A program made the translations under genes and the position numbers. This document shows, piece by piece, positions 15,922 through 16,211 of a stretch of DNA of 44,207 bases. The notes below the pieces were generated by a model. The model saw nothing but the letters and a program-made list of their open reading frames with translations, did no database searches and was not told the origin of the DNA. How positions within the stretch are numbered: position 1 is the first letter of the stretch; every line of letters starts with the position of its first letter. Origin of the DNA: a virus (Duplodnaviria; Heunggongvirae; Uroviricota; Caudoviricetes); the IMG/VR virus record IMGVR_UViG_638341086_000016. One strand, 5' to 3'.

Positions 15922-15995
15922 AGCCTCCTCCCGGGTCCAGAACGCACTCAGCCGGGTATGGTTCAGCCCATTTTTCCCGGCGTCTCATGCCGCAA

Positions 15996-16119
15996 ATGTT
16001 AACTGCTGCCTGGTTAACATTTGCTGAAAAAGCCAGTTAACATTTTTTCCGCACAACAAACTGAATAATAAAGATAAAAACCGCAAAAATGCCCGGACAG
16101 CCAGTTAACATGTTAACTG
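15996..16119. repeat. cluster of five CAGTTAACAT-type 10-mers (two inverted pairs plus one single), candidate terminase recognition (cosB-like) sites
   Basis: ATGTTAACTG...GGTTAACAT at 15996..16020, CAGTTAACAT at about 16035, perfect palindrome CAGTTAACATGTTAACTG at about 16102..16119. Confidence 0.55.
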
Positions 16120-16149
16120 CCCTGAAACGGGAATTTTTTCTCTGCGTGA

Positions 16150-16168
16150 GACGGGGGGCGGTGTCCAA
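16150..16168. other. candidate cohesive-end site (cosN-like G-rich element)
   Basis: GACGGGGGGCGGTGTCC resembles the lambda cosN core GGGCGGCGACCT; sits between HNH gene and small terminase gene. Confidence 0.4.
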
Positions 16169-16211
16169 AGCGATCGTTTTTCACGCCGGATGATACCCCC
16201 CCCCGCTCGGG

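Follow-up and report, generated by a model that had tools for sequence, protein, structure and literature searches.

Among the known packaging systems closest to the locus described here are those of the Stx1 siphophage Lys8385Vzw and the Acinetobacter phage fLi-Aba03, in both of which the ends of the virion DNA have been mapped. Virion DNA of Lys8385Vzw was sequenced, and PhageTerm classified it as that of a cos phage having 3′ cohesive ends of sequence CGCCCCCCCT (Zhang et al. 2021, PMC7946995). For fLi-Aba03, PhageTerm gave 10-nt 3′ ends of sequence CGCCCCCCAT, which were confirmed on gels (PMC7354433). The sections of the Lys8385Vzw and fLi-Aba papers that report the ends give their sequences and make no mention of repeats (PMC7946995, PMC7354433). 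For phages of this type the nick site is known from published work, and we consider here the short repeats that lie between it and the small terminase gene. In phage HK97 (gp1/gp2/gp74), whose genes are ordered HNH endonuclease, cos, terS and terL, cleavage assisted by the HNH protein leaves a 10-nt 3′ overhang. In lambda, the small terminase subunit gpNu1 binds cosB (R3-I1-R2-R1), and it has been demonstrated experimentally that lambda and the PICI EcCICFT073 have cosN in common and differ in cosB and in the DNA-binding domain (PMC6739421).

The window, by which we mean the whole stretch of 44,207 nucleotides analysed (IMG/VR record IMGVR_UViG_638341086_000016), carries its packaging genes on the minus strand. 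A 290-bp intergenic region (15922-16211) separates the gene for a 121-aa HNH endonuclease (16212-16577, minus strand; PF01844 match, E 7.5e-7), which is directly upstream of cos, from terS (15358-15921, minus strand), which encodes a small terminase (TerS) of the Terminase_2 family with an N-terminal helix-turn-helix domain (PF03592). The gene for the large terminase (TerL), terL (13700-15361, minus strand), has matches to PF03354 and PF20441, and a protease-capsid fusion gene occupies 11699-13636 on the same strand. The open reading frames and the Pfam assignments thus give the minus-strand order HNH, cos intergenic region, terS, terL. A 66-aa DUF3950 gene (16619-16819, plus strand), oriented against the late operon, separates HNH from the lysis genes. 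The window TerL is 52% identical to that of fLi-Aba03 (E 5e-163) and is related to HK97 gp2 (23% identity over 490 aa, E 4e-12). The HNH protein is 34% identical (E 2e-14) to the one encoded beside the mapped cos of fLi-Aba03, and its similarity to HK97 gp74 in a protein comparison was not significant.

In BLAST searches, 93 phage records matched the intergenic region with an identity of 95% or more; they represent the long-tailed Stx1a-, Stx2a- and Stx2c-converting phages, BP-4795, 2851, 1717 and phi330 (genus Pankowvirus). By sequence identity, the segment 15922-16211 serves as cos in a prophage of the Shiga-toxin type that is common in E. coli, of the BP-4795/1717-like group. The position and type of its ends are established through the relatives whose virion DNA has been mapped. 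From 16150 to 15908 the window is 100% identical to the first 243 nt of the Lys8385Vzw record (MT225100), which ends ...GGACAC CGCCCCCCCT and starts CTCACGCAGAGAAAAAATTCCC..., and this match places the gene-strand nick at 16151|16150, with the left genome end at 16150 and running towards terS. The predicted 10-nt 3′ cohesive end, CGCCCCCCGT (16151-16160, minus strand), is assigned by identity to the mapped relatives. On alignment, the fLi-Aba03 ends occupy the corresponding place in this conserved core, and the TerL, TerS and HNH proteins of that phage are 52%, 32% and 34% identical to those of the window. We therefore regard the identity of the site as cos and the position of the nick (16151|16150) as almost certain, the end positions being those of the relatives' virions and the window prophage itself being possibly defective.

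Other potential indications of the ends were set aside. BLAST tables of phage records revealed none that obviously ended in the conserved block. The ends of IMG/VR contigs near the palindrome described below were left out as evidence because they are scattered and come mostly from isolate assemblies, and the record of Burkholderia phage E175, which starts inside the homologous core and a few base pairs off, was likewise left out of the end mapping.

The core of the site, GGACACCGCCCCCCGTCTCACGCAGAGAAAAAATTCC (16130-16166, minus strand), is kept across all TerS types, including those of relatives, satellites and fLi-Aba03. The gene strand carries a G9 run (C9 on the plus strand; 16197-16205) on the right-end side, 37-46 bp ahead of the nick, and HK97, fLi-Aba03, E175 and 20 enterobacterial relatives have runs of G5-G9 at a similar distance (approximately 27-48 bp). 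The length of the run is polymorphic, from about G6 to G9, among otherwise near-identical window-like prophages in IMG/VR. Between the run and the nick lies a CGATCG palindrome (16171-16176), at the centre of palindrome I1, which recurs exactly or with one base changed in most enterobacterial relatives and in both satellites. Beyond the nick, at +12..+17 from the left end, is an A6 tract (16134-16139, minus strand). An A/T tract is kept in every lineage compared and, as the A tract is retained with all TerS types, it could also contribute to TerS binding. A/T-rich TGAAATCATTT or AATGATA-type repeats occur just upstream of the G run (about 20-110 bp) in six relatives (L006, L009, L013, L014, L017 and L020) and in the HK97 right end (L085, 620-690); the window is without them because just 6 bp separate its G9 run from the stop codon of HNH.

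The first-pass annotation of this DNA had proposed an HK97-like cos layout of HNH, cos, repeats, TerS and TerL, with a lambda-cosN-like G-rich element at 16150-16168. The gene order is as it proposed, with all of the genes on the minus strand, and HK97-like cos packaging is corroborated by the virion ends mapped in Lys8385Vzw and fLi-Aba03. These same ends place the cut inside the G-rich element. The likeness to lambda did not hold as a matter of mechanism: the ends are 10-nt 3′ extensions rather than 12-nt 5′ extensions and the orientation relative to terS is the opposite one, and we dropped that reading. By eye, the window agrees with the lambda 12-nt sequence GGGCGGCGACCT at 9 of 12 positions, on the strand opposite to terS.

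The same annotation had counted five copies of one motif between HNH and terS. Its three separate repeat copies, its palindrome, its G-rich element and its C9 run are all present where it had placed them, and the count of five requires a shorter unit. Only four copies are exact 10-mers, the fifth (16011-16020, TGGTTAACAT) matching at 8 of 10 positions, so that what all five have in common is the 8-mer ATGTTAAC (or GTTAACAT on the other strand). Nearest to the nick is site A, the perfect 18-bp palindrome CAGTTAACATGTTAACTG (16102-16119, +32..+49), which comprises two ATGTTAAC half-sites and corresponds by homology to the region around the terS start in more compact relatives. Site B is a single copy, CAGTTAACAT (16034-16043, plus strand), with its 8-mer GTTAACAT at 16036-16043 (+108..+115); the base flanking this 8-mer (A at plus-strand position 16035; on the gene strand, the T of ATGTTAACT) is T, A or C in different variants, while the 8-mer is invariant. 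Site C, GGTTAACAT (16012-16020, plus strand; 8-mer GTTAACAT at 16013-16020, +131..+138), and site D, ATGTTAACTG (15996-16005, plus strand; 8-mer ATGTTAAC at 15996-16003, +148..+155), are inverted with respect to each other and lie within a perfect 12-bp inverted repeat, GCAAATGTTAAC/GTTAACATTTGC (I2). Sites A and B are separated by a 58-bp A/T-rich spacer (16044-16101), which belongs to a lineage-specific insert and can in part be aligned with its counterpart in satellite L211. Overall, the five 8-mers extend from +34 to +155 relative to the left genome end, and the spacings between them (8, 68, 23 and 15 bp) reveal no simple helical phasing.

The significance of these repeats is carried by their clustering and not by their total number. 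Counting both strands, the 8-mer occurs six times in the window, where about 1.1 occurrences are expected from composition, and five of the six fall within 124 bp; the largest cluster per 124 bp never exceeded two in 300 first-order Markov simulations. The hexamer GTTAAC is present 18 times against 7.6 expected, a number that no shuffle reached. With one mismatch allowed, the 10-mer has a marginal excess over the whole window, with six matches against 2.25 expected, and 4 of 100 shuffles reached six. Exact 10-mers are expected by chance about 0.08 times in the window. An additional exact copy of CAGTTAACAT (on the plus strand, ATGTTAACTG) is located at 39482-39491, inside the ORF 39319-40089 in the early region and far from cos.

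Searching genome contigs with the TerS protein alone returned no relative, and the relatives discussed here came from an alignment-based scan. A block of about 110 bp is common to 20 diverged enterobacterial prophages, whose TerS proteins are 33-49% identical to that of the window, and to Salmonella phage FSL SP-016. It extends from the G run through GGACACCGC.CCCC.TCTCACGCACAGAAAAAATTCCCCTCTGGAGGGTGTAAAC-ATG-TTA-ACA. In the compact relatives, of which 30 are distinct, a quasi-palindrome GT(A/T)AAC-(A/G)TG-TTAAC includes the terS start codon itself. The second codon (Leu) is TTA in 29 of these 30, compared with 2 of 220 leucine codons elsewhere in the same genes, and the third (Thr) is ACA in 28 of 30, compared with 20% elsewhere. 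Constraints on translation initiation, such as a preference for AU-rich early codons, could explain part of this conservation. A TTA leucine codon is expected to be rare in GC-rich hosts. The GC-rich Burkholderia phage vB_E175 (PV072769; L270/L271) has a homologous cos core and an inverted TGTTAA...TTAACA pair straddling the terS start, where the coding sequence reads ATG GCT TTA ACA and so includes a TTA leucine codon.

If the repeats are recognised by TerS, the candidate domain is the N-terminal one. The PF03592 match of the window TerS (36 bits, against a curated cutoff of 26.1) covers residues 2-57, the helix-turn-helix region, and residues 10-53 have weak matches in the PDB (E 0.18-0.7) to 4zc3, 2cmp and 3zqp, which are DNA-binding domains of SF6/SPP1 G1P. 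The central linker (residues 53-105) is hypervariable, with 8-45% identity in most homologues even where the end domains are approximately 80-100% identical, and in a TerS homologue from E. albertii (P0001) it contains a 15-residue tandem duplication.

Two kinds of E. coli island encode TerS proteins that are informative in this respect. The first (L087/L274; E. coli GCA_012987925.1) has an integrase, small ORFs, an AAA_25 primase, cos, TerS (L274 9001-9489) and a 307-aa capsid homologue that is 23% identical to the window capsid (E 2e-18). It combines the nick core of the window with two AAAAGTTACAC repeats, which are of the AAGTTACAC type. The second (L211, of the L211/L212 island) carries AlpA and TerS, the same nick core, and six copies of the GTTACA type, arranged much as in the window, A/T-rich spacer included. 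Both are PICI-like and are probably satellites of this phage group, and they must use the TerL and HNH proteins of a helper, as neither is encoded in L274. A scan of viral contigs for further satellite TerS genes returned only near-identical copies. The satellite TerS proteins are 50-58% identical to the window protein in the N-domain and 65-75% identical in the C-terminal region, and are accompanied by AAGTTACAC-type repeats. The compact relatives have the reverse pattern (71-81% in the N-domain, 25-31% in the C-terminal region) and are accompanied by ATGTTAAC-type repeats. A third pairing of motif and TerS is provided by fLi-Aba03, in which three AAGTTAAA direct repeats occupy this place. 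These alignments demonstrate that the repeat motif co-varies with the TerS N-domain. In the recognition helix, the window and satellite proteins are essentially one residue apart (KGSQL and KGWQL, respectively), a difference that, if the modular reading proposed below is right, would offer an easily studied natural switch of specificity in a system of the HK97 type.

From these comparisons, TerS is likely to bind the 8-mers. We weighed this reading against the possibility that another protein does so, either a nucleoid protein of the host or a phage protein that regulates the expression of late genes or of terS. Palindromes of the GTTAAC type are characteristic of dimeric regulators, the site in the compact relatives overlaps the terS start codon and ribosome-binding site in a position that would suit repression, and a promoter and terminator scan of the region, which returned no terminator, gave a single weak promoter-like match that is composed of the repeats themselves. 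However, in the satellites and in fLi-Aba03 the motif changes together with the TerS N-domain while the rest of the cos core is constant, no other candidate binder is visibly encoded next to the cos of the satellites, and the IHF consensus was not found with one or fewer mismatches in the spacer (16044-16101). Recognition by a different protein is accordingly unlikely in our estimation.

The copies beyond the palindrome could alternatively be inert leftovers of a duplicative insertion that copied the 5′ end of terS or the palindrome region, by which terS was pushed 190 bp downstream. The window lineage does keep the shared block up to the palindrome, after which an insert of about 190 bp (16101 to 15922) brings three more copies. 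The insert is specific to this lineage, a 13-nt stretch (ATGTTAACTGGCT) is common to sites A2 and B (D4), and a single palindrome suffices in the compact relatives. Beyond the insert, terS restarts with a new ribosome-binding site, GGGAGGAGG, and a GTG start (GTG CTG ACA; 15919-15932, minus strand). A displaced terS is found in two lineages, that of the window (by 190 bp, GTG CTG ACA) and that of a Proteus relative (L019, ATG CTA ACA), and in both GTTAAC remains beside the cos core and has been lost at the new terS start.

Against this reading stands the invariance of the repeats. Among 55 distinct window-like IMG/VR variants, which are closely related and not independent of one another, none of the 38 columns of the five 8-mers varies, compared with 65 of the 187 other columns (35%) between the core and terS (Fisher p 5e-7). 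The flanks that complete the 10-mers outside the 8-mers do vary in this set. In a more diverged lineage (L086, TerS 69% identical) the same C/D inverted pair is kept with ATGTTTAC in both arms, a symmetric change, and satellite L211 shows the same multi-site layout with a motif of its own. The alignments of these variants demonstrate purifying selection on the 8-mers. An origin by duplication is compatible with function, and we consider it improbable, slightly more so than recognition by another protein, that the extra copies are without one.

Far less probable is that what is conserved is a small gene, or else an mRNA structure that governs how terS is translated. A 24-codon hydrophobic ORF (MLTGCPGIFAVFIFIIQFVVRKKC) runs from 16111 to 16037 on the minus strand, starting at the ancestral terS ATG in the palindrome and stopping at a TAA in site B. 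Its start and stop codons are thus supplied by the motif copies themselves, and the frame is unbroken both in the window and in a diverged lineage (L089) with a TerS 77% identical. Against a coding function, the ancestral ribosome-binding site has degenerated from GGAGGG to TCAGGG, and the variants contain three synonymous and three non-synonymous changes as well as A-run indels within the ORF. An Rfam scan found no credible family for the region, and neither form of this explanation accounts for sites C and D or for the matching repeats of the satellites. Recognition of the repeats by HNH or TerL in place of TerS has in its favour that HNH is needed for HK97 cos cleavage, but it is similarly hard to credit given that the satellites retain the nick core and yet have replaced the ATGTTAAC repeats.

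Four independent lines of comparison speak for recognition of the 8-mers by TerS: their invariance among the window-like variants, the overlap of the motif with the terS start in the compact relatives, its persistence beside cos where terS has been displaced, and the pairing of other repeats with other TerS N-domains at a common cut-site core. This is the reading with which we proceed, and it is probable on balance that the locus as a whole is an HK97-type cos in which the 8-mers serve as the TerS address and TerL and HNH perform the cutting. In such a scheme, TerL, helped by the adjacent HNH, would cut within GGACAC|CGCCCCCCGT|CTCACG to leave the 10-nt 3′ overhang at 16151-16160, and packaging would proceed from 16150 towards terS. 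The five ATGTTAAC 8-mers (+34 to +155) would act as an address label, comparable in function to lambda cosB, and each would be bound by one peripheral N-terminal helix-turn-helix domain of a ring-forming Terminase_2-type TerS. The 58-bp A/T-rich spacer may permit the DNA to bend or wrap so that several TerS domains are engaged together, and binding would place TerL and HNH on the conserved core, 30-50 bp upstream of the first site. We infer the physical binding by TerS, its stoichiometry, the wrapping of the DNA and the way in which TerL and HNH share the work.

A broader proposal, which we find as easy to doubt as to believe, is that the cos of this group is modular. A universal nick core would be read by TerL and HNH, and an exchangeable 8-mer address would be read by the TerS N-domain. 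The core would then have the form G run ... GGACAC|CGCCCCCC(G/C/A)T|C..CACGCA..A-tract. The satellites appear to exploit such modularity, in that the nick core of the helper and the TerS C-domain are kept while the N-domain and the repeats have been swapped, from ATGTTAAC to AAGTTACAC.

The assignment of TerS sites in this phage group appears to be unreported in the searchable literature, and a literature search with the literal sequence strings returned nothing relevant. A nick site accompanied by TerS repeats is textbook lambda logic, and general concepts are left unchanged. The interest of the site lies in the phages that carry it. Long-tailed Stx-converting phages, together with many cryptic relatives, spread Shiga toxin genes, and the packaging signal decides which DNA is mobilised, that of satellites included. 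An exact nick position and a set of candidate TerS sites should aid both the design of cos-plasmid transduction assays and the prediction of cross-packaging among prophages and satellites. The system also offers a useful comparison, as it combines an SPP1-like helix-turn-helix TerS with an HK97-like TerL and HNH.

Comparison with HK97 reveals a common architecture in which the recognition element differs. The order of HNH, cos, terS and terL and the 10-nt 3′ overhang are as in HK97. That phage likewise has a G9 run and, at the cut, ...GACCGCCGCCAAA| (GACCGCCGCC; an element of the GAC(A)CCGCC type), followed by a T7 tract and terS. As the layout is the same, the C9/G9 run of the window belongs to the conserved HK97-type cos architecture. 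In the compact relatives, terS also starts tens of base pairs downstream of the cut, as in HK97. However, HK97 TerS binds one 15-bp site at +15..+29, whereas the candidates in the window are five 8-mers at +34..+155. The HK97 T7 tract, at +24..+30, is part of the HK97 TerS site, and the A6 tract of the window is at +12..+17. Moreover, the window TerS is of the Terminase_2 type (SPP1/SF6-like, PF03592) and not of the HK97 gp1 family. Closer counterparts are Lys8385Vzw and the Acinetobacter phages fEg-Aba01, fLi-Aba02 and fLi-Aba03, which have orthologous packaging proteins and 10-nt 3′ ends at the homologous core; fLi-Aba03 differs in that its three AAGTTAAA repeats are direct, while the ATGTTAAC copies of the window are in mixed orientation.

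The candidate sites resemble lambda cosB (R3-I1-R2-R1, gpNu1) in that several short sites, for TerS in lambda and putatively so in the window, lie in mixed orientation between the nick and terS. The exchanges of cosB between lambda and phage 21, and in the PICI EcCICFT073, offer a further parallel, as phage and satellites there share a nick site and their TerS-specific repeats differ along with the DNA-binding domain. The machinery is otherwise different. Lambda has a 12-nt 5′ overhang, no HNH, a winged-helix Nu1 and an IHF site, whereas the window has a 3′ overhang, an HNH gene, an SPP1/SF6-like helix-turn-helix TerS and a spacer in which the IHF consensus was not found. The satellites that share the nick core of the window carry a full TerS in place of an Rpp partner protein. 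Finally, G1P of SPP1 and SF6, with its pac boxes, belongs to the same Pfam family as the window TerS, has an N-terminal helix-turn-helix and recognises several short boxes, as we predict for the window protein. Those phages package by a headful (pac) mechanism, whereas the window has a sequence-specific cos served by an HK97-type TerL and an HNH endonuclease.
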